NCBI GenBank assembly: GCA_046095045.1 | Contig: JBJTIO010000103.1 | Location: 1-61,984 of the forward strand | Reading direction: 5' to 3' | DNA length: 61,984 nucleotides | From: Actinomycetota bacterium | GTDB taxonomy: Bacteria; Actinomycetota; Acidimicrobiia; Acidimicrobiales; Ilumatobacteraceae | Shown here: positions 19,294 to 60,363 of the stretch, in pieces | How the letters are laid out: the number at the start of each line of letters is the position of its first letter | Position numbering within the stretch: the first letter of the stretch is position 1 | Notes under the pieces: model-generated | Seen by the model: the letters and a program-made list of their open reading frames with translations, nothing else | Databases searched by the model: none | Told to the model about the DNA's origin: nothing | Made by a program: the position numbers and the translations under genes

Positions 19294-19308
19294 CTGACGC
19301 TTCGTCAG
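19294..19308. promoter_or_regulatory. perfect palindrome CTGACG-CTT-CGTCAG abutting the ATG of the echA20-like gene
   Basis: Seen directly in the 40-nt divergent intergenic region 19269..19308. No Shine-Dalgarno between it and the ATG at 19309. Confidence 0.35.
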
Positions 19309-20094: not shown

Positions 20095-20098
20095 TCAC

Positions 20099-29865: not shown

Positions 29866-29899
29866 GTCGCCCCCTCTTGGACAACAGTAATGACTCGAC

Positions 29900-29918
29900 G
29901 GCGACAGCACCCGTCGCC
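29900..29918. promoter_or_regulatory. inverted repeat GGCGAC-n7-GTCGCC in the divergent P450 / binding-protein intergenic region
   Basis: Seen directly; the intergenic region 29866..29959 is one of the few non-coding stretches. Confidence 0.25.
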
Positions 29919-29959
29919 CAGAAATGGAGTGATGTCCCTCGATCCGCCAGAATGACGAG

Positions 29960-39059: not shown

Positions 39060-39595
39060 ATCCACAGCCCTCCGTCGCAGACGATCGTCTGACCGGTCAC
39101 GTGCCCGGCCGCCGACGCGCACAACCACGAGACCAAAGAGGTGGGATCGACCTCGCCGGACAGTGCCCGAGGAGCGATCGAGACGGGTCCCGACACCGCA
39201 ACATCGACATCGAACTCGTCGGGCGACAAGGCGACGGCGTTCACCGTCACGCCGTTCGCACCCCACTGTCGAGCCGCCGACTTCACGAGCACCCGAGCGG
39301 CCTCGGCAAACGCGGCGTGCACCGCATGACGATCGCCTCCGGACATCCCGATGGTCGGCACCACCACGACGATCCGCTTGGCTCCCGCATGAAAGGCGGT
39401 CTGAAGCGAAGCGATCAGCCGTTGCATCGGTTGCTCGAAGCAGGAGTCGATTTCGTCGTCGGTCAGACGTTCGATCGGTGTCACCGCTCGACCGCCGTCG
39501 ACTTCGGCCACCACCACCGCCGATTCGATGTCGCTCTGCACCGCATCACGCAAACGTGCCGCCACCGCACAGTCACCATGAACCGTCGCGAGCAT
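39056..39595 (-). CDS. truncated SDR-like protein lacking the glycine-rich cofactor motif and the Tyr/Lys dyad
   Basis: 179 aa; aligns by eye with the C-terminal two-thirds of the neighbouring SDR (…WGANGVTVNAVAL…TGQTIVCDGG). It starts after the first beta-alpha-beta unit, and has H and A where Y and K should be. Confidence 0.7.
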   Translation of the reverse strand: MLATVHGDCAVAARLRDAVQSDIESAVVVAEVDGGRAVTPIERLTDDEIDSCFEQPMQRLIASLQTAFHAGAKRIVVVVPTIGMSGGDRHAVHAAFAEAARVLVKSAARQWGANGVTVNAVALSPDEFDVDVAVSGPVSIAPRALSGEVDPTSLVSWLCASAAGHVTGQTIVCDGGLWM

Positions 39596-40041
39596 CACAG
39601 ACCTCCGACGAGGTGCGCCGACACGTCGCCGTGGGCATCGACCAACATCACGCGTTCGTCGAACCGCCACCGATCCCCGTCATCGCGGACGAATCGGTCG
39701 TGATAACGACCGGAAGCCACCACTTGAAGGGGCAAGACGTCGGGCACCGCTTGCAACACGGTGAACTGCGACCGTGAGGTGGCTTCGTCGGGACCCGTCG
39801 ACTCAATGATCGAGTTGGTGACCAGATGCTTGGTGAGCGGCGAACCGTCGTAGGTGCGAACGAACTTGGCCATCACCGCGCCCACCATCGAACCCGGCAC
39901 CGCGGGATGATCCGGACCCGCCATGAACACTTGTGCCCGTTCGAACAAGGCCGACACACCATCGAAGTCGCCAGCGTCGACGCGCTCGGCGTAGGAGAAG
40001 AGCAGGTTGAGAATCGCCCGCTCGTCGGCCGATGTGAGCAT
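39595..40041 (-). CDS. NTF2-superfamily (SnoaL_4-like) protein
   Basis: ILNLLFSYAERVDAGDFDGVSALF opening. Its stop overlaps the start of the truncated SDR by 1 nt. Confidence 0.78.
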   Translation of the reverse strand: MLTSADERAILNLLFSYAERVDAGDFDGVSALFERAQVFMAGPDHPAVPGSMVGAVMAKFVRTYDGSPLTKHLVTNSIIESTGPDEATSRSQFTVLQAVPDVLPLQVVASGRYHDRFVRDDGDRWRFDERVMLVDAHGDVSAHLVGGL

Positions 40042-40064
40042 GCGGACACCGTAGACCAACTACC

Positions 40065-40919
40065 GTGGCGAGCGTGTCCGAAACGAATGAACCCACTCCC
40101 TCGTGGCCTCTCGCCGGTGAGCAGACCGACGAGATTGTCCGCGCCGCATTTCCGCTCCGCCTCGGTCTCGCCGAGGGCAAGGTTGCTCTCGTCACTGGTG
40201 CCGGGCGTGGCATCGGTGAAGCGACCGCACGATTGTTCGCGACCGAAGGTGCGGCCGTCGTGGTGTGCGACATCGACGTCGCTTCGGCCGAGAAGGTGGC
40301 CCAATCCATTCAGGAGCGCGGCGGCGAAGCTGTCGCCGTCGCGGCCGATCTCACGAAAGAAGACGATGTCGCGGCGGTGATCAACACCGCGATCGATCGC
40401 TACGGGCGTCTCGATTGCGCGGTCAACAACGCGGGCATCAGTGGTCGGTTCGGGTCGTTCATCGATTTGCCGCTCCACGAGTGGCACCAGATGATCAATG
40501 CCAACCTCACGAGCGTCTTCCTCTGCCTCAAGTACGAACTCGGCGTGATGGCGGCCCAAGGATCGGGCGCCATCGTGAACGTGTCGTCGGGGGCCGGTGT
40601 CGTGGCAGCACCCGGGTTGCCTCACTACACGGCGGCCAAGCATGGCGTGCTCGGACTCACCAAGTGCGCGGCGCAGGAATACGCGGCCAAGGGCGTTCGC
40701 GTGAACGCGATCCTTCCCGGCACCACCCGCACGCCGATGATCGAGAACTTCATCAACGGTGATCCGCAGATCGAGAAGATGGTCAGTCGTGGCATCGGAC
40801 GCGGACATCTCGGCGAACCCACCGAGATCGCCGAAGCCGCGGTGTGGTTGTGCAGTGATCGGGCCAGCTTCGTGTGTGGTGAATCGTTGCTGGTCGACGG
40901 CGCCACCGTCTGTCGCTGA
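40065..40919 (+). CDS. SDR family oxidoreductase
   Basis: TGAGRGIGEA, NNAG, Y-x3-K (YTAAKHG). N-terminal ~35-aa extension, so the start is uncertain. Confidence 0.88.
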   Translation: MASVSETNEPTPSWPLAGEQTDEIVRAAFPLRLGLAEGKVALVTGAGRGIGEATARLFATEGAAVVVCDIDVASAEKVAQSIQERGGEAVAVAADLTKEDDVAAVINTAIDRYGRLDCAVNNAGISGRFGSFIDLPLHEWHQMINANLTSVFLCLKYELGVMAAQGSGAIVNVSSGAGVVAAPGLPHYTAAKHGVLGLTKCAAQEYAAKGVRVNAILPGTTRTPMIENFINGDPQIEKMVSRGIGRGHLGEPTEIAEAAVWLCSDRASFVCGESLLVDGATVCR

Positions 40920-40922: not shown

Positions 40923-42026
40923 TCAGCCCCACTCGGCGATGATCTCGCCGATGTCGACCGCACCGGGGTGACCCGGCTCACGGGCCGACGCCGCCGTGCG
41001 CGAGAACCTCGGCGCGATCTGAGCCTGCACCGAGCCGTTCACGTCGACTGTCACACCACGAGCCGCGGTGTGCGGATGCGTCACCACCTCGTGCGGAGCG
41101 AGCACCGGCGCGAAACAGGCGTCGGAACCGTCGAAGATGGTTTCCCATTCGGCGCGCGTGCGAGTGGCGAAGATCGCGGCGAATCGACGTTTGCCTTCGG
41201 CCCATACCGAACGATCGTTCTGACGACTCGCCGACAGAATCTCGTCATCGGTCACCCCGAGACGTTCGAGCAACTCGGCGTAGAACTGCGGCTCGATCGC
41301 GCCCACCGACACCCACTTACCGTCACTCGTTGCGTAGACGTTGTAGAAGTGCGCTCCCCCATCGAGATGATTCGTGCCACGCTCGCTCCAGAAACCGTTC
41401 GTCGCGGCCACGAAGAACGGACCGAGGATCATCGCCGCCCCGTCGACCATCGCAACGTCGATCACTTGACCCATTCCGCTGGTGTGGCGTTCGACGAGTG
41501 CCGCCGACACACCCATCGCCAGCAATAACCCACCACCGGCGAAGTCCCCGAGCATGTTGATCGGCATCGTCGGTGGTTGTCCTTCGTAACCGATGGTGTG
41601 CAACGCGCCCGACAGTGCGATGTAGTTGATGTCGTGTCCGGCGCGATCGACCCACGGGCCACTCTGACCCCAACCGGTCATGCGGGCGAAGACCAGTCGC
41701 GTGTTCCGCTCGCACAACACCGTCGGACCGAGACCGAGTCGTTCGCACACGCCGGGTCGAAACGGGTCGACCAGAACATCGGCGCGATCGACGAGGTCGA
41801 GCAGTCGCGCGCGATCAGCGTCATCTTTCAGGTCGAGCGCAACACCGCGCTTGCCGCGCATCATCGGATTGGTCGCTGGGCGATCGCGTTTCGCGCGCGA
41901 GGCGACCTCGGGTCGGTCGACGGCGATCACGTCGGCCCCGAGATCGGCCAACAGGGCCGCACCATACGGGCCGGGGCCCTGACCCACGAGTTCGACGACT
42001 CGAATACCCGCGAGGGGACCCGTCAT
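40923..42026 (-). CDS. mcr: family III CoA-transferase fold protein, alpha-methylacyl-CoA racemase-like
   Basis: MTGPLAGIRVVELVGQGPGPYGA...LGADVI opening, GHDINYIALSG and GDFAGGG motifs. ATG 42026 chosen; the upstream part of the ORF track overlaps the next gene. Confidence 0.72.
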   Translation of the reverse strand: MTGPLAGIRVVELVGQGPGPYGAALLADLGADVIAVDRPEVASRAKRDRPATNPMMRGKRGVALDLKDDADRARLLDLVDRADVLVDPFRPGVCERLGLGPTVLCERNTRLVFARMTGWGQSGPWVDRAGHDINYIALSGALHTIGYEGQPPTMPINMLGDFAGGGLLLAMGVSAALVERHTSGMGQVIDVAMVDGAAMILGPFFVAATNGFWSERGTNHLDGGAHFYNVYATSDGKWVSVGAIEPQFYAELLERLGVTDDEILSASRQNDRSVWAEGKRRFAAIFATRTRAEWETIFDGSDACFAPVLAPHEVVTHPHTAARGVTVDVNGSVQAQIAPRFSRTAASAREPGHPGAVDIGEIIAEWG

Positions 42027-42028: not shown

Positions 42029-43597
42029 TCAGCGGCCCGCGTCCTCGATGGCTCGCTCCTTGGCCCAGCGATAGTCGCTCTTGCCGGCTGGTGAGCGCAC
42101 CATCATCTCGACGAGCGTCAGCTGACGCGGAACTTTGTAACCGGCCACGTGCTTGCGACAGTGTTCCTGCACGCTCTCGAGCGTCGGGGTGGTACCAGCC
42201 CGCGCTTGCACGACCGCCGTCACTCGTTCGCCCCAGCGTTCGTCGGGAACCCCGACAACGACCGCGTCGAAAACCTCGGGATGGCTCTTCAGGGCGTTCT
42301 CCACTTCCTCGGGGAAGATCTTCTCGCCACCGCTGTTGATGCACACCGAACCACGACCGATCAACGTGATCGAACCGTCTTCTTGCATCACCGCGAAATC
42401 GCCGGGGATCGAATAGCGCGTGCCGTCGGGTCCGGTCACGAAGGTGGCCGCCGACTTCTCGGGATCCTTGTGATAGCGCAACGGAATATTTCCCGTGCGC
42501 GCGAGCTTGCCCATCACACCGGCGGGCACCGGACGGAAGTCGTCACCGAGAACCACGGAATCGGGCGCGGCCTTCACCGTGAGGCCGGGTGTCTTCGGCG
42601 CGTCCTTGCCCACCATCGTGATCCCGTTCGCACCGCCCTCGCTCGAACCGACGGCATCGGTCAGAACGATGTTGGGGAACATCGACATGAACTGGTCCTT
42701 GCACGCTTGGGAGAACAGAACCGCACTCGAACTGACGGCGAACATCGACGAGAGGTCGTACTGCGCGCGGTTGTCGACGAGGTGATCGAGCATCGGTCGC
42801 GCCATGGCGTCGCCGGTGATCATCACGAGGTTCACCTTCTCGGCGTCGATGGTGCGGAACACGTCGGCCGGATCGAACTTGGCGCGCAACACCACCTTGT
42901 TGCCGATGAAGCTCTGCCCCATCACGCTCCATTGGGTCGCTCCATGCATCAACGGTGCGATCGGCAGACCGCAGAGGTGAAAACCGTTGCGGCCCTTCTC
43001 GACGAATTGATGTGGTTCGGTGAGTTTGATTCCGGTGGTGATGTCGACGCCGCCACCGAGGGCCATCACCACGTCCTGGTGGCGCCACACCACACCTTTG
43101 GGCATGCCGGTGGTGCCACCCGTGAAAAGCATGTAGATGTCGTCGTTGCTGCGCGGTTCGAAGTCGCGCTCGTCGGACTGCGCAGCCAACGCTGCCTCGA
43201 ACTCTGGTCCGATCACGAGTTGCGGTAGGTCGGGTTGCACCGCGCGGGCCCGATCGGCGAACTCGGGCTCGACGATGAGATACGTGAGATCGGCGTTGCC
43301 GAACAAGTAGGCGAGTTCGTCCTCGACGTAGCGGTAATTGATGTTGATCCATACGGCTCGGATCTTGAAGATCGCCCACAACGACTCGACCCACTCGACG
43401 CGGTTGAGCGCGTAGATCCCCACGTGGTCACCGGGGCGGACGCCTTGCTGACGCAGGTGGTGCGCCAAGCGATTCGCCCGTCGGTCCATCTCGAGGTAGG
43501 TGCGACGCACGTTCTCATCGACCACGTACTCGCGGTCGGGCCACTCGTCGACCGACGCCTCGAAGAGATCCGCGATGTTGAAGGTGCGAGCAGGCAT
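42029..43597 (-). CDS. acyl-CoA synthetase, FadD19/FadD17-like (steroid/branched-acid CoA ligase type)
   Basis: NIADLFE..VDEWPDR opening, NINYRYVEDELAYLF, AMP motif FTGGTTGMPKG. Divergent from an echA19-like crotonase, as in mycobacteria. Confidence 0.8.
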   Translation of the reverse strand: MPARTFNIADLFEASVDEWPDREYVVDENVRRTYLEMDRRANRLAHHLRQQGVRPGDHVGIYALNRVEWVESLWAIFKIRAVWININYRYVEDELAYLFGNADLTYLIVEPEFADRARAVQPDLPQLVIGPEFEAALAAQSDERDFEPRSNDDIYMLFTGGTTGMPKGVVWRHQDVVMALGGGVDITTGIKLTEPHQFVEKGRNGFHLCGLPIAPLMHGATQWSVMGQSFIGNKVVLRAKFDPADVFRTIDAEKVNLVMITGDAMARPMLDHLVDNRAQYDLSSMFAVSSSAVLFSQACKDQFMSMFPNIVLTDAVGSSEGGANGITMVGKDAPKTPGLTVKAAPDSVVLGDDFRPVPAGVMGKLARTGNIPLRYHKDPEKSAATFVTGPDGTRYSIPGDFAVMQEDGSITLIGRGSVCINSGGEKIFPEEVENALKSHPEVFDAVVVGVPDERWGERVTAVVQARAGTTPTLESVQEHCRKHVAGYKVPRQLTLVEMMVRSPAGKSDYRWAKERAIEDAGR

Positions 43598-43646
43598 GTG
43601 AATGTGCTACCACAGAACGCACACAACGAGGGAAAACGGAGTCGAC

Positions 43647-44447
43647 ATGTCGGGGACCGAGCATCTACTGGTCGAGCAAGAGGGTCACACGTTGATCGTC
43701 ACCATGAATCGTCCCGAGGCCAAGAACGCCCTCAGCCCGGCGATGATCGTCGGTCTCGCCGATGCCTGGGTCCGACTCAACGAGGACGACGACCTGCGCT
43801 GCGCGATCCTCACCGGTTCGGGCGGATCGTTCTGCACCGGCATGGACCTCAAGGCCCGCGCCAACGACGACGCCGGACCGAACCCCTACCAAGAGCGTTG
43901 GGCCGCCGACCCCGATCTCCACTGGAAGGCCCTGCTGCGTCATTACCGCTTGCGCAAACCGCTGATCGCCGCGGTCGAGGGTTACGCCGTCGCGGGTGGC
44001 ACCGAGATTCTGCAAGCCACGCATCTGCGGGTCGCCGGAGAGAGCGCGACGTTCGGAGTGTTCGAAGCGCGTCGCGGTTTGTTCCCCGTCGGTGGTAGCA
44101 CCGTTCGACTGCAGCGTCAGATCGGTTACACGAACGCGCTCGAGATGTTGCTCACAGCCCGCGGTTACACGGCGAGCGAAGCCCGAGAGATCGGATTGAT
44201 CGGACACGTCGTGCCCGACGGCACCGCGTTGGCCAAGGCGAAGGAACTGGCCGACATGATTTGCGCCAACGGCCCACTCGCCGTCGAGGCCATCTTGAAG
44301 TCGGTGCAGGAGACCGCGTCGATGCCCGAGGCCGAGGCGTTGAAACTAGAGTTCGAAATCGGTTGGCCGATCTTCAGCACGAACGATTCGAAAGAGGGCC
44401 CACGAGCATTCGCCGAGAAGCGCGCGCCCAACTGGACGCGCACCTGA
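43647..44447 (+). CDS. enoyl-CoA hydratase, EchA19-like by position
   Basis: Crotonase fold (LIVTMNRPEAKNAL, GSGGSFCTGMDLK, EGYAVAGGTE). ATG 43647. Confidence 0.85.
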   Translation: MSGTEHLLVEQEGHTLIVTMNRPEAKNALSPAMIVGLADAWVRLNEDDDLRCAILTGSGGSFCTGMDLKARANDDAGPNPYQERWAADPDLHWKALLRHYRLRKPLIAAVEGYAVAGGTEILQATHLRVAGESATFGVFEARRGLFPVGGSTVRLQRQIGYTNALEMLLTARGYTASEAREIGLIGHVVPDGTALAKAKELADMICANGPLAVEAILKSVQETASMPEAEALKLEFEIGWPIFSTNDSKEGPRAFAEKRAPNWTRT

Positions 44448-44448: not shown

Positions 44449-45615
44449 TCAGGGTTTGCCGTTCGACACCAGCCACATCGCGAAGAACTGACTGCCGCCG
44501 CCGTACGCGTGGCCGACCGCCTTGCGGGCCCCGTCGATCTGGTGTTCACCGGCTTTGCCCATCACCTGCATCGCGGCCTCGCCGAAACGCAGCATGCCCG
44601 AGGCGCCGATCGGGTTGGTCGACATCACGCCGCCCGACGGGTTGATCGGTAGCGAACCGCCGATATCGGTGACGCCGTCCTCGACCCAACGCCAACCCTC
44701 ATTGCGCGGAGCAAACCCGAGGTTCTCGAGCCACATCGGCTCGAACCAAGCGAATGGAACGTAGATCTCGGCGACGTCGATCTCCTTGGCCGGGTTGGTG
44801 ATGCCGCCTTTGCGCCACAAGTCCTCGGCGCACATCTCACCGGCTCGCGGACTCACTTGTTCGCGTCCGGCGAAGGCCGTCGGCTCGCTGCGCATGGCCG
44901 TGGCGTGCACCCACGCTTTCGGTCCGGGGTGCTTGTCGGCGCGCTCCTCGCTCATCAGAACGAGAGCCATCGCACCGTCGCTCGACGGACACGTCTCGAC
45001 GAAGCGAATCGGATCCCACATCATCGGACTCTCGAGCGCCTTCTCGAGGGTCCAGTCGGGTTCGTGCAGATGCGCGTACGGGTTCTTGCACGCGTTGGTG
45101 CGATCCTTCACCGCGACCATCGCACCGATGTGCGTCGGTGCGTTGGAACGCTTGATGTAACCGCGCACGATCGGCGAGAAATAGCCGCCCGCACCGGCGT
45201 GCACCGGCATACCGAACGGAATCGGAACGCTCAGTGCCCACATCGCGTTGCCATCGCTCTGCTTCTCGAAACCGATGGTGAGCACAGTGCCGTGGATACC
45301 AGCCATCACATGATGCGCCGCGACGATGGCGGTCGATCCACCAACCGACCCGGCCGTGTGCACGCGGAACACCGGCTTACCGTGCGCGGCGAGGGCATCG
45401 GCGAGCCACAGTTCGGGCATCGCCACACCTTCGAGCGGATCCGGAGCCTTGCCGATGACGATCGCGTCGACATCGTCGATACCGATGTTCGCATCGGCGA
45501 GCGCACGATCGACCGCCTCACGCACGAGACCGGCGATCGACACGTCGGCGCGACATGACGCGTGCTTGGTCTGTCCGACACCGACTACCGCACAGAGATC
45601 GGCCATCTCACTCAC
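44449..45615 (-). CDS. thiolase-fold lipid-transfer protein (Ltp, SCP-x-type), nucleophile Cys apparently replaced
   Basis: SCP-x-thiolase-like sequence (VVGVGQTK..., NPSGGVMSTNPIGASG). At the N-C-A-T-G-S-T-A nucleophile motif it reads T-A-G-S-V-G-G-S-T-A. Confidence 0.82.
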   Translation of the reverse strand: MSEMADLCAVVGVGQTKHASCRADVSIAGLVREAVDRALADANIGIDDVDAIVIGKAPDPLEGVAMPELWLADALAAHGKPVFRVHTAGSVGGSTAIVAAHHVMAGIHGTVLTIGFEKQSDGNAMWALSVPIPFGMPVHAGAGGYFSPIVRGYIKRSNAPTHIGAMVAVKDRTNACKNPYAHLHEPDWTLEKALESPMMWDPIRFVETCPSSDGAMALVLMSEERADKHPGPKAWVHATAMRSEPTAFAGREQVSPRAGEMCAEDLWRKGGITNPAKEIDVAEIYVPFAWFEPMWLENLGFAPRNEGWRWVEDGVTDIGGSLPINPSGGVMSTNPIGASGMLRFGEAAMQVMGKAGEHQIDGARKAVGHAYGGGSQFFAMWLVSNGKP

Positions 45616-46666
45616 CCTCCATGACGCACACCAGGTTCTGTTGAATCAACGGTCCGCTCGTGCAGTGAGCCAACACGCGGTCGGCCGAGCCCGAGAACAC
45701 GCTCTCGGCGGCCTCGACGAAACGCGCGAGACCGGCGGCCATCGCGGGGTTCGACACCAACGCTCCGCCACTCGGATTCACGTGCGTCGCATCGGTCAAC
45801 TTCATGGCCTTGCGCAACAGGATCTCTTGGTGGCTGTACGGGGCGTGAATCTCGGCGACGTCGATGCGATCGGTGCCGACACCGGCCTTCTCGGCGGCGA
45901 CCGCGGCCGAATGGCTCTCGATCATCGAACGCGCTCCGAGGCGCTGGGTGTCGATGCGATGATCGATGCCACGAATCCAGGCCGGGCGTTCGGCCAGTCG
46001 CCGCGCCGCGTCTCCCGCCGCGAGGATCACGGCGTTCGCGCCGTCGACGGGCACACCGCAGTCGTGAGCCCGCAACGGAGCCGTGGTGTAGGGCCGCTGC
46101 AACAGCGCCTCGGCGGTGACGTTCTCCTTGGCGTAAGCGACCGGATTCTTCAATGCGTCGCGATAGCTGCGCGCCGCCACTTCGGCCATGTCGGCCTCGG
46201 TCAACACGCCGGCGTCGAGACACGCGCGCGCCTGCAACGCCGCAAGCGCGTCGAAACCGGGCCACAACGGGGTGACCATGTAGGGATCGGCTTGCAGGTT
46301 GAGAATGCGGTCGATCGGACCCGAAGTTGTCTTGCCATTCGAGAAAACGAGCGCGACATCACATTCGCCGGTCTGGATCTTCACCCACGCCTCGTACAAC
46401 GCCAACGCGCCGTCACCTTCGACGTGGCTCTCGACGATCGGTGGCCACGCGCCGATCGCATCGACGGCAGCGACGAAACTGAACGGCTGACCGCTCATGT
46501 AGTCACAACTGCCGTGGCACCAGAACCCGATCTCCTTGCGATCGATGCCGACCTTGGTGATCACGTCGTTGATCACCGGAAGAATCAACTCGACCGATGT
46601 GAGGGTTGTGCCCACTTGGTTCGGTCGCTGTGCCACGCCGACAATGGCCACCTCACGCCGCGCCAT
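45608..46666 (-). CDS. thiolase-fold lipid-transfer protein (Ltp), second divergent copy, nucleophile Cys apparently replaced
   Basis: IVGVAQRP..., VNPSGGALVSNPAMAAG; reads ESHVEGDGALA at the nucleophile motif. 8-nt overlap with the downstream ltp; 1-nt overlap with the upstream DUF35 gene. Confidence 0.8.
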   Translation of the reverse strand: MARREVAIVGVAQRPNQVGTTLTSVELILPVINDVITKVGIDRKEIGFWCHGSCDYMSGQPFSFVAAVDAIGAWPPIVESHVEGDGALALYEAWVKIQTGECDVALVFSNGKTTSGPIDRILNLQADPYMVTPLWPGFDALAALQARACLDAGVLTEADMAEVAARSYRDALKNPVAYAKENVTAEALLQRPYTTAPLRAHDCGVPVDGANAVILAAGDAARRLAERPAWIRGIDHRIDTQRLGARSMIESHSAAVAAEKAGVGTDRIDVAEIHAPYSHQEILLRKAMKLTDATHVNPSGGALVSNPAMAAGLARFVEAAESVFSGSADRVLAHCTSGPLIQQNLVCVMEGE

Positions 46667-47163
46667 CAGCTGGCCCCCGCTTCGCTCGACATGTCGCGAT
46701 CGGGCTCACCCGTCGGACGGAAGTGCGCGATGCTCTCGAGCGTCGGACCCCACTCACTGCGGTCCTTCCACACCGGCTCGACTCGCATGCCGATACGCAC
46801 GTCGGAGGCTTCGCACTCTTGGATGAGGTGTTGCATCGAGATGTCGGCTCCATCGAGAAGGATCTGGGCCGCCACGTACGGAAGCTTGATCTTCTGTCCG
46901 AGGAACGGAACGTTGACCACGCAGAAGGTCGTGATCGTTCCGCGCGGTCCGACCACGACGTCGTCGCCGAGGATGCGAGCGCACTTCGGGCACACACCGT
47001 TGCGCGGCGGGAAGTAGACGAGTGAGCAACCCGGGCAACGCTTGCCCACGAGTTTGCCCTCGAGCAGTCCATTGAGATGACTGGTCGCATTCGGACCGGC
47101 CGACCAGTTGTAGGTGACCGAAATCGGCTGCCGAAGTCGCAGGATGCCGTCGGCTTCGCTCAT
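46666..47163 (-). CDS. DUF35 OB-fold / zinc-ribbon acyl-CoA-associated protein
   Basis: Zinc ribbon CPGC...CPKC followed by an OB-fold region. ATG 47163 overlaps the upstream stop (ATGA). Confidence 0.82.
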   Translation of the reverse strand: MSEADGILRLRQPISVTYNWSAGPNATSHLNGLLEGKLVGKRCPGCSLVYFPPRNGVCPKCARILGDDVVVGPRGTITTFCVVNVPFLGQKIKLPYVAAQILLDGADISMQHLIQECEASDVRIGMRVEPVWKDRSEWGPTLESIAHFRPTGEPDRDMSSEAGAS

Positions 47164-47639
47164 GACGCCTCCCCGATCAGGTCGAAACACGCGATGTCGC
47201 GAATCCCGCCGTTGCGTTCGGCGGACCAACGCACTTTCACTCGCGATCCGGTGCGGACTCGCGACATGTCGCCGGCGTCGACCGCGTGCAACAGGGGTAC
47301 ATCGGCGCCGTCGAGGGTGATCATCGCCCACGCGAAGGGACGGTCGAGGGGCTGATCTGGTTGGGGCACCGATTGCCAGGCCCACGTGGTGACCGTGCCC
47401 GTCTCGGGGAGCGTCACCCATTCGTCGAGTTGTGCGCCCGTCACGGGGTCGAACTCGGCCGGTGGGAAGTACACCCGACCGTCCGATCCTCGGGTGCCCT
47501 CGAGGCGGCCCTCCTGCAGAGACATGAAGAAGCGCGACAGCAGGGTGCCCACCGTGCGCTTGTAGGGATACGCGACTTCGAGGGGTGCGACGAAGACTCC
47601 GTCGGCACCCGAAGTCGACGACGATGCTGAAGTCGACAC
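47160..47639 (-). CDS. DUF35-like OB-fold protein lacking the four zinc-ribbon cysteines
   Basis: Same architecture (…GRVYFPPAEFDPVTG… then OB-fold), but no Cys where the ribbon should be. Confidence 0.72.
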   Translation of the reverse strand: MSTSASSSTSGADGVFVAPLEVAYPYKRTVGTLLSRFFMSLQEGRLEGTRGSDGRVYFPPAEFDPVTGAQLDEWVTLPETGTVTTWAWQSVPQPDQPLDRPFAWAMITLDGADVPLLHAVDAGDMSRVRTGSRVKVRWSAERNGGIRDIACFDLIGEAS

Positions 47640-47777
47640 GGCTTCGTTCTTATCACTCCCGGGTCGATCGGCGCATGTCGGTGCCGGGTCACTGACGCCC
47701 TATCGGTGAGGGGAGCGTGCTTGCTAATGTCGGTCGTGAGTCGGAGCGGGGGCTCCGATCGACATCTCGGGGGAATC

Positions 47778-49235
47778 ATGATCAAGAACCGTCGTTCGGT
47801 CCGTGCGTTGTTCACATTGGGTGTCGTGGTCGTCACCGCGGTCGGATGTTCGAACCGCGAAGGGGGCGCCGACTCCACCAACGCCCCCGCCGCCGAGGCA
47901 CCTTCCACTGAAGCTCCCACGTCGGATGCCCCGACCACGGAAGCTCCCGCTGGCGAGATGTTCGGCGACATGGCCAGCCCCTGCGGTCCGGCCACCGACG
48001 CTGGCGTGCCCACATTCGCCGACGGTCAGAACGGTGGCGACACCTTGAAGATCGGAACCGCCACCGATCACGGATACGAGGCCGCGCCCGGTTTGACGGT
48101 CGAGATGCTCGACGCCGCCGAGGCCTTCGCCGGATGGTGCAACGAGCAGGGCGGCATCCGCGGACTGCCGATCGAGATCGTCGACCTGGACGGAAAGTTG
48201 TTCAACGTTCCCGCCGCGACCGAGCAGGCATGCGCGGAAGTGTTCGCCATGGTTGGCGGTGGATGGGTGTTCGACAATCAGATGTACCCCCGATTCCACG
48301 AGTGCGGGATGATCTCGTTCCCCGGTTACGCCGTCACCGCCGAGGCGTCGATGGCCAATGGTCGTGTGCAGCCAATCCCGAACCCGTCGAACAAGAAGCC
48401 GGCGTCGTGGTTCTTGTGGGCCAAGGAGTATCAGGCCGAGGCCATCGGTAAGCCAGCCATCATCTACGGCGACTTCGTGAGCACGAAGATGGTCGCCGAA
48501 CAGATCAGAGCAACGATGGTCGCGGTCGGGGGTTTCGGAGATCCGTTGATGATCCCCACCAACCCAGCGGGTGAAGCCAACTGGACGCCGTTCGCTCAGC
48601 AACTGAAGGACGAAGGCATCACCATGCTTTCGGTCGTCGGCGAGCCCGGCAACATGATCCTGCTGTACAAGGCGATGCGCGAGGTGGGTTACGTGCCCGA
48701 CCTCGTGCTGAACGACGCCAACCACTACAGCGAGCAGATCGTGGCCGAGGGCAACGCCGAATCGACCGAGGGTCTGCGCGTGCGAACGGTGTACTCACCG
48801 TTCGAGGAGGCCGACACGAACCCGGCTCTCGCCAAGTTCCTCGACATCATGGCGACGTACAACCCCGATGGGCGCATCGCCGGACTTGGTCAGCAAGCAA
48901 TGTCGGCTCTGTTGCTCTTCGCCCAGTCGGCCAACGCATGTCTGGATGCCAACGACAACGTGCTCGAACGTGAATGCGTGCTCGCTGAGGGCAAGAAGGT
49001 CACGTCGTGGACCGCCGGTGGTCTGCACGCCGAGTCGAACCCCGGTGAGAACGAACCGCCCAAGTGCGGTCTCATCATGGGAGTCGTCGAGGGCAAGTGG
49101 ACCCGCATCTACCCCGAACTCGGTAGCGCCGACGACAACAGCGGCGGCTGGCACTGCGACGAGAACGGTGCGGTCGACATCGAAGGCGACTTCGGTGATG
49201 TCACGGCCGCGGTCGATCCGACGCGACCCAACTGA
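47778..49235 (+). CDS. ABC transporter substrate-binding lipoprotein, LivK/Peripla_BP_6-like
   Basis: ATG 47778 with GGGGG upstream; signal peptide with lipobox AVGC; paralogue of 29960..31408. Confidence 0.88.
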   Translation: MIKNRRSVRALFTLGVVVVTAVGCSNREGGADSTNAPAAEAPSTEAPTSDAPTTEAPAGEMFGDMASPCGPATDAGVPTFADGQNGGDTLKIGTATDHGYEAAPGLTVEMLDAAEAFAGWCNEQGGIRGLPIEIVDLDGKLFNVPAATEQACAEVFAMVGGGWVFDNQMYPRFHECGMISFPGYAVTAEASMANGRVQPIPNPSNKKPASWFLWAKEYQAEAIGKPAIIYGDFVSTKMVAEQIRATMVAVGGFGDPLMIPTNPAGEANWTPFAQQLKDEGITMLSVVGEPGNMILLYKAMREVGYVPDLVLNDANHYSEQIVAEGNAESTEGLRVRTVYSPFEEADTNPALAKFLDIMATYNPDGRIAGLGQQAMSALLLFAQSANACLDANDNVLERECVLAEGKKVTSWTAGGLHAESNPGENEPPKCGLIMGVVEGKWTRIYPELGSADDNSGGWHCDENGAVDIEGDFGDVTAAVDPTRPN

Positions 49236-49274
49236 ACGACCTGATTGTTTCGTGAACCGAGCGACAGACCGCTG

Positions 49275-51548
49275 ATGCAGGAACTACTCACGTTCACCAT
49301 CATCGGTCTGTCGACCGGAGCGATCTACGCGGTGGTGGCGAGCGGTCTCGTCGTCACCTACACCACCTCGGGCATCTTCAACTTGGCGCACGGTGCCACG
49401 GGCATGCTGTCCGCGTTCACCTACTGGCAGTTGCGTTTCGACTGGGATCTGCCCGCGCCTCTCGCGCTGTTCATCACGCTGTTCATCCTGTGCCCGCTCT
49501 TCGGCATCGTGACCGAACGTTTCGTGATGCGCGGTCTGCAGGGAACGACCGAAGTGGTGCGCCTGTCGGTCACCGTGGCGCTGTTCGCCTTCATGATCGG
49601 CTTGGCCAACTGGATCTGGCCGAACGACGCCAGTCGGGAGGCGTTCCTCAAGTTCTATGAAGGCAACAGCATCTCGATCGGAGGCTTCAACGTCAGTTGG
49701 CACCGCCTCATCACGTTCGGGTGCGCGGTCGTCGTCGCGATCGTTCTTCGCATCGTGCTCTACAAGACCCGCATGGGTGTCGCAATGCGTGCGGTGGTCG
49801 ACGACCGCAATCTCACCGAGCTCAACGGTGGGCGACCCGATCGGGTGTCGATGTTCGCGTGGGGCATCAGCGCCTCGCTCGCCGGTCTCGCGGGAATCCT
49901 GCTCGCGGGTGATCAGCAGTTGAACATCGAACCGCTGGTGTTGCTCGTCATCAACGCGTACGCCGCGGCGATCATCGGTCGGCTGCGCAGCCTGCCTCTC
50001 ACGTTCCTCGGAGCTGGTCTGCTCGGTTTGCTCGACGCCTACTACCTGATGATCTCCGACGAGTCGTGGTTCCCGCAGACCGCCTTCGGCTTCTCCTTGT
50101 CGGGTGTTCGCGCCGCGCTTCCCACGATCGTGCTGTTCATCGCATTGTTGGCCCGACCGCAGAGTCGATTGAAGGTCGGCACGGTGAAGTTCCGCGAGGA
50201 GCATCGGGTTCCCGAATGGCGCACCGCGGTGCTCGGGGCGATCGTGTTGGTTGTCGCGGTCATCGGCATCTCGGGAATGTTGACCCGCGCCAACACCTTG
50301 TTGCTCCTCAACGGCTTCACCTTCGCGATGGTCACGTTGTCGTTGGTTCCGCTCACCGGATACGCGGGTCAGATGTCACTCGCTCCGTTGACGTTCGCCG
50401 GTCTCGGAGCGATCGCGATGTCGAAGTTGCCCGGGAACGGCAACCTGCTCACGCTTCTCGTCGCGGTGACGATCGTCGCGATCGTTGGCGCGATCGTGGC
50501 ACTGCCGGCTTTGCGATTGTCGGGTATCTACCTCGCCTTGTCGACGGCGGCGTTCGCCGTGATGGTGAGCAAGATGGTGTTCAATCAACGCCAGACGTTC
50601 CAGACCGGCAACATCACCGTGCCCGTGCTGAAGGTTCCCTTCGTCACCATCGACACTCCCCGCGGCCGTCTGATTCTCGCCTCGATCGTGTTCGCACTGC
50701 TCGGACTCGCCGTGACCGCCGTCCGACGCAGTCGACTCGGACGCAGATTGGTCGCGTTGAAGGACTCCCCCGCCGCTGCCGCCACGCTCGGCATGAGTCT
50801 CACGCGCACCAAGTTGGCCGCGTTCGCCATCTCGGCGGCCATCGCCGCGTGCGCGGGTGCTCTCGCCGGCGACAAGGTGAGCCCGCAGCAATACGAGTTC
50901 ACGCAGAGTCTGCCGATCGTGTTGCTCGCCGTCGTCGGCGGAGTTGGCTCGGTCGCGGGAGCGCTGTTCGGTGGTTTGTTGCTCGGTGGAAACTCGGTGC
51001 TCGCGACCATCGTGCCCACGGTGAAGAACATCACCAAGATCGGCCCCGGCACCATCGGCATCACCCTCGGTCGCAATCCACAGGGCGCGGCGTCGCAGAT
51101 CGGCGACGCATTCCGACCGCTCACGCAACAGCCCCGTCTCGTCACGATCTCGCTCACTGGCGCGGTGGCGATCTGGGCGCTCACGACCGTCGATGCGATC
51201 TCCCATTGGACGTTCTTCGTCACGATGATCGTTTGGGTGCTCGCGGTGTCTCCGAATCTCCCCGCGTTGCTGGCCGCGGATCGAGGTCGTCGCCTCGTGG
51301 CCGGCGCCTGGTTGGTGATCGGACTCGCGGTGTCCGCGGGCATCGATTGGGGTACCGCACTCGATGCAACGGGCAAGCGAATCATCGTCATCGTCGGACT
51401 CGTTGCCTTGTTCGGAGTCGGCGCCCAACGCTTCACCGAGAATGCTCCGCGCGTGCACACCGCGTCACCCGATCTCGCGGGTCTCGACACCGCGTTCACG
51501 CGCGAGGAGATCGAAGTCGCGGAGCAAAAGGTCGGGGTGGTGATCTGA
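49275..51548 (+). CDS. fused branched-chain-amino-acid-type ABC permease (LivH-like plus LivM-like halves, extra C-terminal TM region)
   Basis: N-terminus IIGLSTGAIYAVVASGLVVTY..FNLAHG (LivH-like); second half PLTGYAGQMSLAPLTFAGLGA (LivM-like); about 757 aa. Confidence 0.88.
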   Translation: MQELLTFTIIGLSTGAIYAVVASGLVVTYTTSGIFNLAHGATGMLSAFTYWQLRFDWDLPAPLALFITLFILCPLFGIVTERFVMRGLQGTTEVVRLSVTVALFAFMIGLANWIWPNDASREAFLKFYEGNSISIGGFNVSWHRLITFGCAVVVAIVLRIVLYKTRMGVAMRAVVDDRNLTELNGGRPDRVSMFAWGISASLAGLAGILLAGDQQLNIEPLVLLVINAYAAAIIGRLRSLPLTFLGAGLLGLLDAYYLMISDESWFPQTAFGFSLSGVRAALPTIVLFIALLARPQSRLKVGTVKFREEHRVPEWRTAVLGAIVLVVAVIGISGMLTRANTLLLLNGFTFAMVTLSLVPLTGYAGQMSLAPLTFAGLGAIAMSKLPGNGNLLTLLVAVTIVAIVGAIVALPALRLSGIYLALSTAAFAVMVSKMVFNQRQTFQTGNITVPVLKVPFVTIDTPRGRLILASIVFALLGLAVTAVRRSRLGRRLVALKDSPAAAATLGMSLTRTKLAAFAISAAIAACAGALAGDKVSPQQYEFTQSLPIVLLAVVGGVGSVAGALFGGLLLGGNSVLATIVPTVKNITKIGPGTIGITLGRNPQGAASQIGDAFRPLTQQPRLVTISLTGAVAIWALTTVDAISHWTFFVTMIVWVLAVSPNLPALLAADRGRRLVAGAWLVIGLAVSAGIDWGTALDATGKRIIVIVGLVALFGVGAQRFTENAPRVHTASPDLAGLDTAFTREEIEVAEQKVGVVI

Positions 51549-52255
51549 TGTCGTTGCTCGAGGTGCGCGGAGTGATGGTGCGTTTCGGCGGTGTGATGGC
51601 CGTCGGCGGCGTCGACCTCACCGCCGAGGTCGGGCAAGTGACGGGCCTGATCGGGCCGAACGGCGCCGGCAAGACCACGTTGTTCAACGTCATCAGCGGC
51701 ATGCAGGAACCGACTGCTGGACAGGTCTTCGTGAGCGGTATCGACATCACACGCGAGGCGCCCCACAAGCGAGCCAAGCGCGGTCTCGCCCGCACGTTCC
51801 AACGACTCGAATTGTTCGCCTCGCTGACGGTGCGCGACAACGTGCGCGTCGCGGCCGAACTCGCCGGCGTACCGGACGTCGATTCGACCGTCGACGATCT
51901 GATGACCAAGGTGGGCGTGGCCCATCTCGCCGACTCGGTCGCTGGTGATCTACCCACCGGTTCGGCTCGATTGGTCGAGATAGCTCGCGCTCTCGCCACC
52001 ATGCCCCGACTGTTGTTGCTCGACGAGCCGGCATCGGGACTCGACGACGGTGAAACCGAGCGACTCGGCGCGTTGCTGCGTGAGTTGGCGAGCGACGGAC
52101 TCGGTGTGCTCTTGGTCGAACACGACATGGATCTCGTGATGCACGTGTGCGACCGCATTCATGTGCTCGATCTCGGAAACATCATCGCCGTCGGCGATCC
52201 GAACTCCATCCAACACGATACGGCCGTGCTGCAGGCCTACCTGGGGACGGCATGA
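51548..52255 (+). CDS. ABC transporter ATP-binding protein, LivG-like
   Basis: Walker A GPNGAGKTT, signature LPTGSARL, Walker B LLLLDEP. The ATG shares 1 nt with the permease stop. Confidence 0.92.
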   Translation: MSLLEVRGVMVRFGGVMAVGGVDLTAEVGQVTGLIGPNGAGKTTLFNVISGMQEPTAGQVFVSGIDITREAPHKRAKRGLARTFQRLELFASLTVRDNVRVAAELAGVPDVDSTVDDLMTKVGVAHLADSVAGDLPTGSARLVEIARALATMPRLLLLDEPASGLDDGETERLGALLRELASDGLGVLLVEHDMDLVMHVCDRIHVLDLGNIIAVGDPNSIQHDTAVLQAYLGTA

Positions 52256-52959
52256 GCGACCAACCGATTCTCGAACTGCGCAACGTGCGCGCGGGCTACG
52301 GATCGATCGACGTGTTGCATGGCGTCAATCTGACGATCGGTCGTGGAGAAGTTGTCGCACTGCTCGGCCCGAACGGCGCGGGCAAGAGCACGACGATCAA
52401 GGTGATCAGTGGTCTGTTGCGACCGTCGGCCGGACAACTGATCGTCGCCGGACGTGACGTCACCGGTGCGGCGGCGAGTTCGCTCGCCCGTGCCGGACTT
52501 TGCACCATTCCCGAGGGTCGCGGAATCTTCCCCAATCTCACCGTGCGCGAGAACCTGATCATGGCGACGTTCAGTGGTCACAAGATGCACGACATCGAGG
52601 AGCGCACCTATTCGCGCTTTCCGCGTCTCGGCGAGCGTCGCACGCAACTGGCCGGAACGATGTCAGGTGGCGAGCAGCAGATGTTGTCGCTGGCCCGAGC
52701 GCTCGCCACCGATCCGGCGATTCTGTTGCTCGACGAGTTGTCGATGGGTTTGGCACCGTTGATCGTCGCCGAGTTGTACGCCCAGGTCGCGGCTATCGCC
52801 TCCGAAGGTGTGTCGGTGCTCGTCGTCGAACAGTTCGCGCGCACCGTGCTCGGAGTCGCCGACACCGCCGTGTTGCTGGCGCACGGAACGGTGCGAATGG
52901 CCGGCAAGGCCTCCGAAATCGGCGATGATGTGTTGGCGGGGGCCTATCTCGGCTCGTGA
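52252..52959 (+). CDS. ABC transporter ATP-binding protein, LivF-like
   Basis: Walker A GPNGAGKST, signature MSGGEQQM, Walker B LLLDELS. ATGA overlap with the LivG-like gene. Confidence 0.92.
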   Translation: MSDQPILELRNVRAGYGSIDVLHGVNLTIGRGEVVALLGPNGAGKSTTIKVISGLLRPSAGQLIVAGRDVTGAAASSLARAGLCTIPEGRGIFPNLTVRENLIMATFSGHKMHDIEERTYSRFPRLGERRTQLAGTMSGGEQQMLSLARALATDPAILLLDELSMGLAPLIVAELYAQVAAIASEGVSVLVVEQFARTVLGVADTAVLLAHGTVRMAGKASEIGDDVLAGAYLGS

Positions 52960-57645: not shown

Positions 57646-58422
57646 TTAATTGCGGCTGAGTTCCTTGCGGTTCTTGACCTTGGCCTTGCGGTAGTCCTTG
57701 TTCATCAAGGCGATCACGTCGATCGAGATCTCCTTGGGGCAGGCCGCCTCGCACTCACCATGGTTGGTGCACGATCCGAAGTACTCGTCCATCGTCTCGA
57801 CCATCGCCTCGACACGCTTGAACCGCTCGGCCTGACCTTGCGGCAACAGGTTGAGGTGATTGATCTTGGCCGCGGTGAACAAGTTGGCCGCACCGTTCGG
57901 GCAGGCCGCCACGCAGGCTCCGCATCCGATGCACTCGGCCGAGTCCATCGCCGCGTCGGACACGGGCTTCGGAATCGGGATGAGGTTCGCATCGGGAGCG
58001 CCACCCGTCGGAGCGGTGATGAAACCGCCCGACTCGATGATGCGATCGAACGCCGAGCGATCGACCATGAGGTCCTTGATGATCGGGAACGCCGAGGCGC
58101 GCCACGGCTCGATCACGATCTCGTCGTTGCTCTTGAACTTGCGCATGTGCAACTGGCAGGTGGCGGTGCGGCGCTCGGGACCGTGCGCCTGACCGTTGAT
58201 CATCAACGAACACGTGCCACAGATGCCCTCGCGGCAATCGTGGTCGAACACCACCGGCAACTTGTTGTTGGCGATGAGTCGCTCGTTGAGCACGTCGAGC
58301 ATCTCGAGGAACGAGGCCTCGTCGCTGATCTCGTCGATGACGTAATCCTCGAAGTGACCGGCCGACGTCGGCCCGTCCTGACGCCAGATCTTGAGTTTGA
58401 GGTTCTTGAGGTGGTTGCTCAC
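57646..58422 (-). CDS. sdhB: succinate dehydrogenase / fumarate reductase iron-sulfur subunit
   Basis: Cys clusters [36 protein letters not shown] 58422 overlaps the sdhA stop (GTGA). Confidence 0.93.
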
Positions 58423-60341: not shown

Positions 60342-60363
60342 TTTTGTCTCCTGATGATCCGGG

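Follow-up and report, generated by a model that had tools for sequence, protein, structure and literature searches.

Among the steps of phytosterol side-chain degradation, removal of the C24 alkyl branch is understood the least, and it matters both for the industrial production of steroid synthons and for cholesterol catabolism in mycobacteria. Two thiolase-fold proteins, Ltp3 and Ltp4, have been tied to this step by genetics: as recounted in PMC7807495, PMC10832528 and PMC6593523, Wilbrink (2012) found that deletion of ltp3/ltp4 in Rhodococcus rhodochrous blocks the degradation of C24-branched sterol side chains. The products of both genes are presented as propionyl-CoA-releasing aldol lyases (PMC10832528), a review uses the term 'heteromeric aldol-lyase (Ltp3-Ltp4)' (PMC6678751), and a pathway table for Nocardioides places ltp3 and ltp4 at two steps, IX-X and XI-XII (PMC7807495). 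Both genes are induced about 97-fold by phytosterol (PMC6593523) and belong to the KstR regulon, KstR binding the Rv3520c/Rv3521 intergenic region (PMC1995591). Here we describe a putative counterpart of this system in a contig of 61,984 nucleotides (JBJTIO010000103.1, assembly GCA_046095045.1; 'the window' denotes this whole stretch) from a bacterium of the Ilumatobacteraceae (Acidimicrobiia), in which four minus-strand genes located at positions 44449-47639 code for two DUF35 proteins and two thiolase-fold proteins. A first-pass annotation, made from the sequence alone, had pointed out that the set mirrors Rv3521-ltp4-ltp3 of Mycobacterium tuberculosis and had regarded the function of the latter as not established. 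The likeness holds, as detailed below; the second statement needs qualifying, since Rhodococcus genetics assigns the system to C24-branched side chains, and what is lacking is biochemistry and structure. A search of the open literature (DUF35, Rv3521, Ltp3, Ltp4) did not turn up any study of the biochemistry or structure of the complex, nor an enzyme assay of Ltp3, Ltp4 or the Rv3521-type protein, and a search of the PDB found no structure of any of the three.

Catalysis by cysteine-less thiolase folds has been described for two steroid aldolases, TcLtp2 and CtSal (PMC12329534). In TcLtp2, Tyr294 of the YDHF motif is the catalytic base and Tyr344 the acid; in CtSal, the catalytic pair consists of Tyr302 and Cys304 of the YDCY motif. 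Both motifs correspond to the HDCF motif of SCP2 thiolases, and in Sal a Gly occupies the position of the thiolase nucleophile, its backbone contacting the substrate hydroxyl (PMC12329534). The first-pass annotation was right to invoke this precedent of a Cys-less thiolase fold that works with a DUF35 domain as a retro-aldolase (PMC12329534).

The four genes of the window, as read from the sequence and a list of open reading frames (ORFs), are the following:

47160-47639, minus strand: g1, DUF35 protein without ribbon cysteines, 159 aa
46666-47163, minus strand: g2, DUF35 protein with a Cys4 zinc ribbon, 165 aa
45608-46666, minus strand: g3, Ltp4-type thiolase-fold protein, 352 aa
44449-45606 (ATG start) or 44449-45615 (GTG start), minus strand: g4, Ltp3-type thiolase-fold protein, 385 aa from ATG 45606

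They are chained as initially described: g1 and g2 overlap in an ATGA at 47163-47160, so that the g1 TGA runs into the g2 ATG, and g2 and g3 share the single base 46666 within a TGATG. The third junction calls for a correction. The g3 stop codon occupies 45610-45608, and the 8-nt overlap proposed for 45608-45615 is doubtful, as it rests on a GTG at 45615 that is not conserved in relatives. We take ATG 45606 as the start of g4 because it is kept in the relatives, as is a GGAGG 9 nt upstream, and because the NCBIfam profile PRK08313 starts at the Met that it encodes. The g3/g4 junction is then most likely TGA-g-ATG, with a 1-nt spacer that would still couple the two genes tightly; residue numbers of Ltp3 count from this ATG. 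Spacing in related loci is similar: -4 nt between g1 and g2 in 60 of 75 loci, -1 or -4 nt between g2 and g3 in 58 of 75, and +1 or -1 nt between g3 and g4 in 58 of 66. The tight junctions are thus conserved and not accidental, and all four proteins are co-translated from tightly coupled genes. Third-position GC is 0.79-0.81 in g1, g3 and g4, and the long ORFs on the opposite strand of g1-g4 fail a filter of GC3 > 0.72 and GC2 < 0.56. Note that a promoter and terminator scan of the 43.5-48.2 kb region gave nothing above shuffled controls.

The family assignments of the two thiolase-fold proteins come from profile matches. The g3 product matches NCBIfam PRK07937 with 488.7 bits (cut-off 419) over residues 4-352, and the g4 product matches PRK08313 with 654.6 bits (cut-off 514) over residues 5-388 of the 388-aa reading; in Pfam, g4 has Thiolase_N and Thiolase_C_1, and g3 has thiolase matches below threshold only. 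Equating PRK07937 with Ltp4 and PRK08313 with Ltp3 is our own assignment, backed by comparison with Tsukamurella. In the latter, a gene coding for a 309-aa double-DUF35 protein is followed by ltp4 and ltp3 with overlaps of 4 nt and 1 nt, and the module adjoins an AMP-binding (FadD19-type) gene and a crotonase (EchA19-type) gene; the same record carries kstR, mce4, hsaEFG-type genes, P450s and a steroid thiolase. Streptomyces has the same five genes, with a 313-aa fusion. The g3 product is 53-55% identical to the Ltp4 proteins of these two genera, and the g4 product is 65-66% identical to their Ltp3 proteins. In the window, too, the ltp3-type gene lies directly downstream of an ltp4-type and a DUF35 gene and close to fadD19- and echA19-type genes. 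With both profiles above cut-off and the neighbours shared, the comparison identifies the four genes as orthologues of Rv3521-ltp4-ltp3 in a form where the DUF35 tandem is split, and we consider it likely that they make up a retro-aldolase module orthologous to Ltp3/Ltp4.

A genome scan with the Ltp4 alignment returned 80 related loci. Those classified below phylum belong mostly to metagenome-assembled genomes of Acidimicrobiia or Ilumatobacteraceae, many of them from lakes or rivers and two labelled acIV, and several of the 80 carry generic or evidently wrong taxon labels. A database look-up of the exact Ltp4 sequence of the window had no hit. The order g1-g2-g3-g4 is kept in every locus with enough contig, and this conservation dates the arrangement. 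Across the 80 loci, identity to the protein of the window amounts to 66-98% for Ltp3, 45-97% for g2, 56-95% for Ltp4 and 46-87% for g1, so that of the four proteins Ltp3 varies least. A genuine Ltp4-Ltp3 fusion would be informative. A search for Ltp4-Ltp3 or DUF35-Ltp fusions among representatives at 50% identity gave two candidates, P0310 and P0382, in which an Ltp4-like and an Ltp3-like segment share one ORF; both were rejected because they look like fragments or frameshifts, with Arg/Pro-rich stretches in the wrong frame. P0382, P0350 and P0310 have no Pfam match, and P0242, P0326 and P0292 have thiolase domains only, apart from a sub-threshold TsaD match in P0242.

The two DUF35 proteins share a fold but not the ribbon cysteines. 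The g1 product matches Pfam OB_ChsH2_C (44.7 bits, cut-off 27.1), and the Pfam search gave no zf-ChsH2 match for it; the g2 product matches both zf-ChsH2 (43 bits) and OB_ChsH2_C (49.5 bits, same cut-off). The zinc ribbon of g2 is formed by C43, C46, C58 and C61, of which the first three are present in 77/77 sequences and the last one in 69/77, an Asp replacing it in the other eight. At these positions g1 reads GSDG...DPVTG, and none of 76 sequences has a Cys there, although a ribbon-like backbone segment is retained. The initial claim that one DUF35 protein keeps the ribbon and the other has lost all four cysteines is therefore borne out by Pfam and by the 76-77 sequences. For g1, an AlphaFold2 (AF2) model with a predicted local distance difference test score (pLDDT) of 87 was compared to known structures by Foldseek: all significant matches (ranks 1-21, E<=1e-3) are DUF35 chains, namely 3irb, 6esq_E-G, 6ok1_B/D, 9myr_B, PhlB, BbsA, MucB and Trf. 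For g2, the PDB sequence matches are 6esq_E (1e-8), 6ok1_B (the ChsH2 DUF35), PhlB and 9myr_B. Both proteins thus have the DUF35 fold, and their nearest solved relatives all partner thiolase-fold enzymes.

By sequence, g1 and g2 are paralogues (32% identity, E 3e-18), and they align with the N-terminal half and the C-terminal half, respectively, of the fused proteins of Tsukamurella and Streptomyces, g1 being 50% identical to the N-terminal half in both. These alignments make g1 orthologous to the N-terminal half of Rv3521-type fused proteins and g2 to the C-terminal half. Two kinds of g1 homologue are found: (i) stand-alone proteins of ~158 aa in Acidimicrobiia and freshwater metagenomes; (ii) two-domain fusions in Mycobacterium and Streptosporangiaceae, found as entries of 266-279 aa that are partial or N-terminally truncated, the annotated loci of Tsukamurella and Streptomyces giving the lengths of 309 and 313 aa stated above. 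The linker between the fused domains is short, roughly 12-20 residues as read off the alignment. Because g1 and g2 are fused into a single protein in other lineages, this Rosetta-stone evidence indicates that they act together. It also qualifies their description as free-standing: they are separate in the window, but fused in most cultured Actinomycetes, so that the split is a lineage variant.

To locate the catalytic positions of the thiolase folds, we used HMMER alignments to the Cys-bearing chains 6hsj (zebrafish SCP2), 7yvy (Pyrococcus), 7pxp (BbsB) and 6esq (archaeal), together with hhalign and a profile built from Ltp3 and its nearest paralogues; residue equivalences with TcLtp2 (6ok1_A) and CtSal (9myr_A) run through the HDCF motif and chain numbering, not through direct alignment. 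In Ltp3, the residue aligned with the nucleophilic Cys of 6hsj, 7yvy and 7pxp is Gly86 (TA-G-SVGG); the Ser first assigned to this position is the next residue, Ser87, and was thus one residue off. The HDCF equivalent of Ltp3 reads Y282-V-P-F285, with Y282 aligned to the His of HDCF, and the GHP His is replaced by Asn331. G86, C206, Y282, V283, P284, F285, N331, H366 and Y368 are invariant in 68/68 sequences, and they are identical in Tsukamurella and Streptomyces. Ltp3 therefore combines two features of the Ltp2/Sal-type aldolases, an SCP2-thiolase-like fold in which Gly replaces the nucleophilic Cys and a base Tyr at the first HDCF-equivalent position (as in YDHF and YDCY).

The thiolase fold, as well as database names such as 'acetyl-CoA acetyltransferase', would suit the idea that one or both Ltp proteins are ordinary thiolases engaged in thiolytic beta-oxidation. 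We hold this to be very improbable. The feature set of thiolases comprises a nucleophilic Cys, a CxG/HDCF Cys and the GHP His, and all three are absent from both Ltp proteins: alignment with thiolases places no nucleophilic Cys in either; the HDCF Cys position is a Pro in both; and the GHP His, already reported as missing, is an Asn in both (TNP and SNP). This absence is invariant across the two families. Because neither protein has a nucleophilic Cys or a GHP His, their sequences argue for excluding thiolase chemistry, and thiolysis is predicted to be impossible for either of them.

Cys-less, His-less thiolase folds of the Ltp3 type form a large group and are no rarity. At 50% clustering the Ltp3 family has one full-length representative, and the next paralogues, at 31-45% identity, mostly show the same Gly/Tyr/Asn pattern. 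A PDB sequence search found no relative of Ltp3 closer than 4yzo (ST0096 of Sulfolobus tokodaii, 1e-36). The latter also has no nucleophilic Cys, reading DNTSGSGGS where thiolases read C-[AS]-[ST]-G; its GHP His is nevertheless retained, the first HDCF position holds His and not Tyr (ELHDMA), and the Gly/Tyr/Asn pattern is thus not present. Judging from these alignments, loss of the nucleophilic Cys is common in this clade.

Ltp4 presents a different picture. Its AF2 model (pLDDT 90, predicted template-modelling score 0.91) has 6et9_C, an archaeal thiolase, as best Foldseek match (TM 0.92), and, among thiolase folds that cooperate with DUF35, it also superposes on BbsB, ST0096, SCP2 thiolases and CtSal (9myr_A, TM 0.85). 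Its nucleophile loop is two residues shorter than that of the Cys-bearing thiolases and of Ltp3. The alignment is ambiguous at this place: the Cys position falls on Glu83 in pairwise HMMER alignments or on residue 84 (A/G/M) with hhalign, and in neither case on the Val first proposed. The HDCF equivalent reads H274-A-P-Y, and residue 274 varies over 79 sequences (H 61, Y 13, L 2, S 2, C 1); the catalytic base Tyr of Ltp2/Sal-type aldolases is thus not a conserved feature of Ltp4. According to hhalign, Ltp4 also has no counterpart of the 17-residue loop 300-316 of Ltp3. Because the Tyr equivalent varies, loops are deleted and identity across loci is below that of Ltp3, Ltp4 looks degenerate. 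The only low-confidence part of the model, residues 51-80 (block pLDDT 57-67), sits in a largely invariant stretch, residues 48-83, FWCHGSCDY...WPPIVESH (FWCHGSCDYMSGQPFSF...WPPIVESHVE), which suggests, as far as the model goes, that this stretch folds against a partner or forms a partner-dependent surface. Cys50, His51 and Cys54 of this stretch are invariant in Acidimicrobiia, whereas Tsukamurella and Streptomyces have Ser in place of His51 and Cys54. The Cys/His stretch might serve as an interface to a partner, or else as a metal or redox site specific to the lineage.

From these data, we infer the retro-aldol chemistry, the heteromeric assembly, the DUF35-Ltp pairing and the substrate as follows. 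A FadD19-type ligase would make the CoA thioester; dehydrogenation (with carboxylation in the sterol pathway) and the action of an EchA19-type hydratase would then yield a 3-hydroxy-2-methyl-branched acyl-CoA, whose C-alpha/C-beta bond the Ltp complex would break to give propionyl- or acetyl-CoA and a carbonyl product (a ketone). Ltp3 would be the catalytic subunit: Tyr282, at the position of TcLtp2 Tyr294 and CtSal Tyr302, would abstract the hydroxyl proton, Gly86 would stand in for the thiolase nucleophile and offer its backbone amide, and Asn331 would take the place of the GHP His. Ltp4 is a pared-down paralogue that most likely pairs with Ltp3 in a structural (non-catalytic) or substrate-shaping role. 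Each thiolase-fold subunit would be capped by one DUF35 protein, as ChsH2-DUF35 caps Ltp2, and translational coupling would supply the DUF35 and Ltp proteins in matched amounts. In our estimate, this reading of the module as an unfused Rv3521-Ltp4-Ltp3 retro-aldol system for branched sterol-type side chains, with Ltp3 catalytic, Ltp4 as its partner and the DUF35 proteins as caps, has about an even chance of being right; the specific picture of a heterodimer that includes a pseudoenzyme is held more tentatively and is somewhat doubtful.

Several observations weigh against this reading; they concern the catalytic residues, the assembly and the substrate. As to the first, Ltp3 has no equivalent of the second catalytic residue of the known aldolases: Pro284 occupies the Cys/His position of the motif, which is Cys304 in Sal and a His in Ltp2, and Asn331 is found where Ltp2 has Tyr344 and Sal has Gln352, an equivalence inferred from spacing and chain numbering. 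Since Gly and the base Tyr are present and neither known acid is, Ltp3 would represent a third active-site variant within the aldolase group, fitting neither the Ltp2 nor the Sal catalytic pair. C206, H366 and Y368 might be considered as candidates for the general acid.

As to the assembly, Ltp4 keeps S80, H81, E83, D85, N306 and H334 at active-site-equivalent positions: S80, H81, V82, E83 and D85 are invariant in 79/79 sequences, H334 is invariant as well, and N306, at the GHP His position, is found in 78/79. These polar residues exceed what a pure scaffold would need, so that Ltp4 may be catalytic. A mirror-tree analysis, moreover, gave no sign of Ltp3 and Ltp4 co-evolving beyond what phylogeny accounts for (partial r about 0). 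With the four families in 64 loci, the partial correlation was 0.79 for g2-Ltp3 and 0.62 for g1-Ltp4; when EchA19- and FadD19-type controls were included (21 loci), the g2-Ltp3 value became 0.17, and rank-based values shifted again, so that the signal for DUF35-Ltp pairing is not robust. Both the polar residues and the missing co-evolution signal are compatible with two sub-complexes, (Ltp3)2 with one DUF35 type and (Ltp4)2 with the other, each carrying out its own branch-removal step, e.g. in successive C-C cleavages. The separate steps given to ltp3 and ltp4 in the Nocardioides table (PMC7807495) and the solved DUF35 bridges between different thiolase-fold dimers (6esq, 5m3k and 9vbo) point the same way, as does the short linker of the DUF35 fusions; by analogy with PhlB, which staples PhlA2 to PhlC2, and with ChsH2-DUF35, which tethers a hydratase to Ltp2, the fused tandem of Actinomycetes might staple both dimers for channelling. 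Against two sub-complexes stand the unconserved catalytic-Tyr position and deleted substrate-side loops of Ltp4, the description of Ltp3-Ltp4 as heteromeric in the review (PMC6678751), and the fact that the invariant Ltp4 stretch 48-83 is where the model is of low confidence, which suggests partner-dependent folding. On balance, we deem an organization in two sub-complexes possible but unlikely, and the same holds for channelling by a stapling tandem.

As to the substrate, the evidence lies in the genes that surround the operon:

43602-44447, plus strand: EchA19-type enoyl-CoA hydratase, convergent with g4 (NCBIfam PRK07799, 413.5 bits, cut-off 316)
42029-43597, minus strand: FadD19-type acyl-CoA synthetase (NCBIfam PRK07798, 678 bits, cut-off 543), in conserved synteny
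40923-42026, minus strand: family III CoA-transferase, alpha-methylacyl-CoA-racemase (AMACR)-like (Pfam CoA_transf_3, 295 bits)
40065-40919, plus strand: SDR (Pfam)
39595-40059, minus strand: SnoaL_4 protein (Pfam)
47706-52959, plus strand: ABC importer made of a Peripla_BP_6 binding protein, a 767-aa fused double permease and two ATPases (Pfam)

The EchA19-type gene adjoins g4 in most related loci, and also in Tsukamurella and Streptomyces, and its product probably supplies the 3-hydroxyacyl-CoA substrate. Genes are packed tightly outside the four-gene set as well: a single nucleotide separates the ends of the convergent EchA19-type and Ltp3 genes, and no terminator-like site lies there. The AMACR-like gene begins 2 nt past the FadD19-type stop codon and is kept downstream of the FadD19-type gene in many loci; its product might act as a racemase. 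The SnoaL_4 and SDR genes are syntenic in a set of Ilumatobacteraceae loci (L002, L003, L012, L014-L018, L021-L026, L037 and L063). The importer is divergent from g1, and a binding-protein gene holds this place in most of the close loci (L001-L030); on this synteny, the importer may be dedicated to the uptake of the pathway substrate.

The rest of the window contains further genes that bear on the question:

18937-21747, plus strand: hydratase read as EchA20-type (NCBIfam PRK07938, 420 bits), then CoA-transferase alpha and beta subunits
22840-23298: MaoC dehydratase
26086-27234: Rieske/Ring_hydroxyl_A oxygenase
27260-28702: acyl-CoA ligase; the NCBIfam model that it matches best, that of the bile-acid ligase BaiB, scores well below cut-off
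within 28699-31408, minus strand: cytochrome P450
29960-31408: second Peripla_BP_6 binding protein
33566-33979: second SnoaL_4 protein
57646-61140, minus strand: succinate dehydrogenase/fumarate reductase operon (flavoprotein, Fe-S protein, cytochrome b)

In the PDB, the CoA-transferase alpha subunit matches 6co6_A and 6con_A best by far (E 1.7e-95, against 5e-22 for the next family). We take 6co6 and 6con to be IpdAB, the hydrolase that opens steroid ring D in Rhodococcus and M. tuberculosis, and 18937-21747 thus looks like an echA20-ipdA-ipdB cluster in an Acidimicrobiia genome, 25 kb from the four-gene operon. The genes listed between 22840 and 33979 lie upstream, together with further SDRs, and taken as a whole the window resembles an island for the catabolism of lipids or steroids. 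The Rieske oxygenase at 26086-27234 was considered as KshA and ruled out on account of its Ring_hydroxyl_A domain. The operon at 57646-61140 is ordinary housekeeping and has no relation to the Ltp module.

The remaining points against our reading are that the EchA19 equivalog model gives 370.5 bits, under its cut-off of 400, that the KstR operator TnnAACnnGTTnnA has 0 matches in the window, and that neither a KshA-type oxygenase nor a carboxylase is found in the window. Because the operator, the oxygenase and the carboxylase are all missing there, the substrate in Ilumatobacteraceae may not be a C24-branched sterol. The same aldolase chemistry could then act on another 2-methyl-branched or isoprenoid acyl-CoA (e.g. 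derived from hopanoids, carotenoids or phytol) brought in by the ABC importer. The neighbours of the module would fit such a substrate: they are a Leu/Ile/Val-type binding protein and importer, AMACR-like, SDR and SnoaL genes, not mce4, cyp125 or kstR. The Streptomyces module, for its part, sits among polyketide and terpene genes, and Acidimicrobiia are not mentioned in the steroid-degradation literature searched. On the other side, the window holds genes of the IpdA/IpdB and EchA20 types, which are characteristic of the catabolism of steroid rings C and D, together with a P450 and further acyl-CoA ligases, and the four core proteins as well as the FadD19- and EchA19-type ones match the families of sterol clusters. 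A non-sterol substrate strikes us as unlikely, and we retain a branched sterol-type side chain as the working substrate of the Ltp3-Ltp4 module.

The most specific version of this scheme, a single asymmetric aldol-lyase composed of a competent Ltp3 and a pseudo-enzyme Ltp4, with dedicated zinc and zinc-less DUF35 caps, used together with IpdAB-type ring enzymes by the abundant freshwater acIV Acidimicrobiia on algal or plant sterols, is speculative and on present evidence improbable rather than probable. If it were true, however, the arrangement would be one absent from solved thiolase-fold/DUF35 complexes, and a whole class, the Acidimicrobiia, would join the organisms known to degrade steroids. 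That the module is so widespread in Ilumatobacteraceae of lakes may point to a sink for sterol-like lipids that has gone unrecognised. Already known are the gene set, its regulation and genetic role, and the principle of an aldolase made of a Cys-less SCP2-type fold and a DUF35 domain. The new elements are (i) the split-DUF35 variant and its prevalence in freshwater Acidimicrobiia; (ii) the putative Ltp3 signature Gly86/Tyr282/Asn331, with no apparent counterpart of the Sal Cys or of the second Ltp2 Tyr; (iii) the apparent degeneracy of Ltp4 at the base position and a diverged DUF35 pair that is fused or split according to lineage. In practice, the split form provides separately expressible parts for studies of DUF35-Ltp pairing.

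How, then, does the module compare with the systems described so far? The closest is Rv3521-Ltp4(Rv3522)-Ltp3(Rv3523) of M. tuberculosis and its R. rhodochrous counterpart, which belong to the same families (PRK07937 and PRK08313) and show the same order DUF35-DUF35-ltp4-ltp3, start/stop overlaps and FadD19/EchA19-type neighbours. Rv3521-type systems share with the window the Ltp3 motifs VHTAGSVGGSTA, ETCPSSDGA, YVPF, NPIGASG and GHAYGGG. They differ from it in four respects: the DUF35 proteins are separate and coupled in the window but form one fused protein in Mycobacteriales, Streptomyces and Streptosporangiaceae; the second DUF35 has a Cys4 ribbon in the window and is Cys-less in the Mycobacterium sequences compared; the Ltp4 motif is FWCHGSCDY in the window, as opposed to FWCSGSSDY or FTCSGSSDY in Actinomycetes; and the host is a member of the Acidimicrobiia (Ilumatobacteraceae) with no KstR operator in the window, whereas the Rv3521 system is part of the KstR regulon.

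The next comparison is with the solved aldolases. TcLtp2-ChsH2(DUF35) (6OK1), an aldolase for C3 side chains of steroids, resembles Ltp3 by its SCP2-thiolase-like fold without nucleophilic Cys and by the Tyr at the first HDCF position; it has an obligatory DUF35 partner and releases propionyl-CoA from a tertiary 3-hydroxy-2-methylacyl-CoA by a retro-aldol reaction. By contrast with the module described here, it is a homodimer flanked by a single kind of DUF35 domain, which is part of the hydratase ChsH2; it has YDHF and the acid Tyr344 where Ltp3 has YVPF and, at the presumed Tyr344 position, an Asn; and the sequence similarity is modest (E 5e-22). CtSal-CtShy(DUF35) (9MYR), which acts on C5 side chains of bile acids, likewise shares with Ltp3 the Gly at the nucleophile position and the Tyr in the HDCF-equivalent motif, and the zinc ribbon of its DUF35 partner shapes the substrate cleft; however, its acid, Cys304 of YDCY, is replaced by Pro in Ltp3, and this proteobacterial enzyme forms homodimers and has only one type of DUF35, which is fused to a MaoC hydratase.

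Finally, DUF35 proteins staple thiolase folds in the archaeal thiolase/HMGCS/DUF35 complex (6ESQ), PhlACB (5M3K), MucABC (9VBO) and the benzoylsuccinyl-CoA thiolase BbsAB (7PXP), and all of these except BbsAB combine two different thiolase-fold proteins in one complex. Leaving aside 3irb, an uncharacterised DUF35 protein of Sulfolobus, the structures closest to g1 come from this group, as do those closest to the Ltp4 model and the best sequence match of g2. In each of these complexes at least one enzyme, of the thiolase, HMGCS or KAS III type, depends on a Cys and there is only one type of DUF35, whereas in the window both thiolase folds are of the SCP2 type and Cys-less and the two DUF35 paralogues have diverged. 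The first-pass annotation had called a hetero-complex of two Ltp and two DUF35 proteins a new architecture; this is a hypothesis, and with PhlACB, MucABC and the archaeal complex as partial precedents the architecture would be less unprecedented than was stated. The pairing of an active thiolase-fold subunit with a nucleophile-less paralogue encoded by an adjacent, translationally coupled gene is known from the ketosynthase-chain length factor (KS-CLF) heterodimers of type II polyketide synthases. The latter differ from the Ltp module in that they belong to another branch of the superfamily, catalyse condensation on substrates bound to an acyl carrier protein and involve no DUF35 protein.

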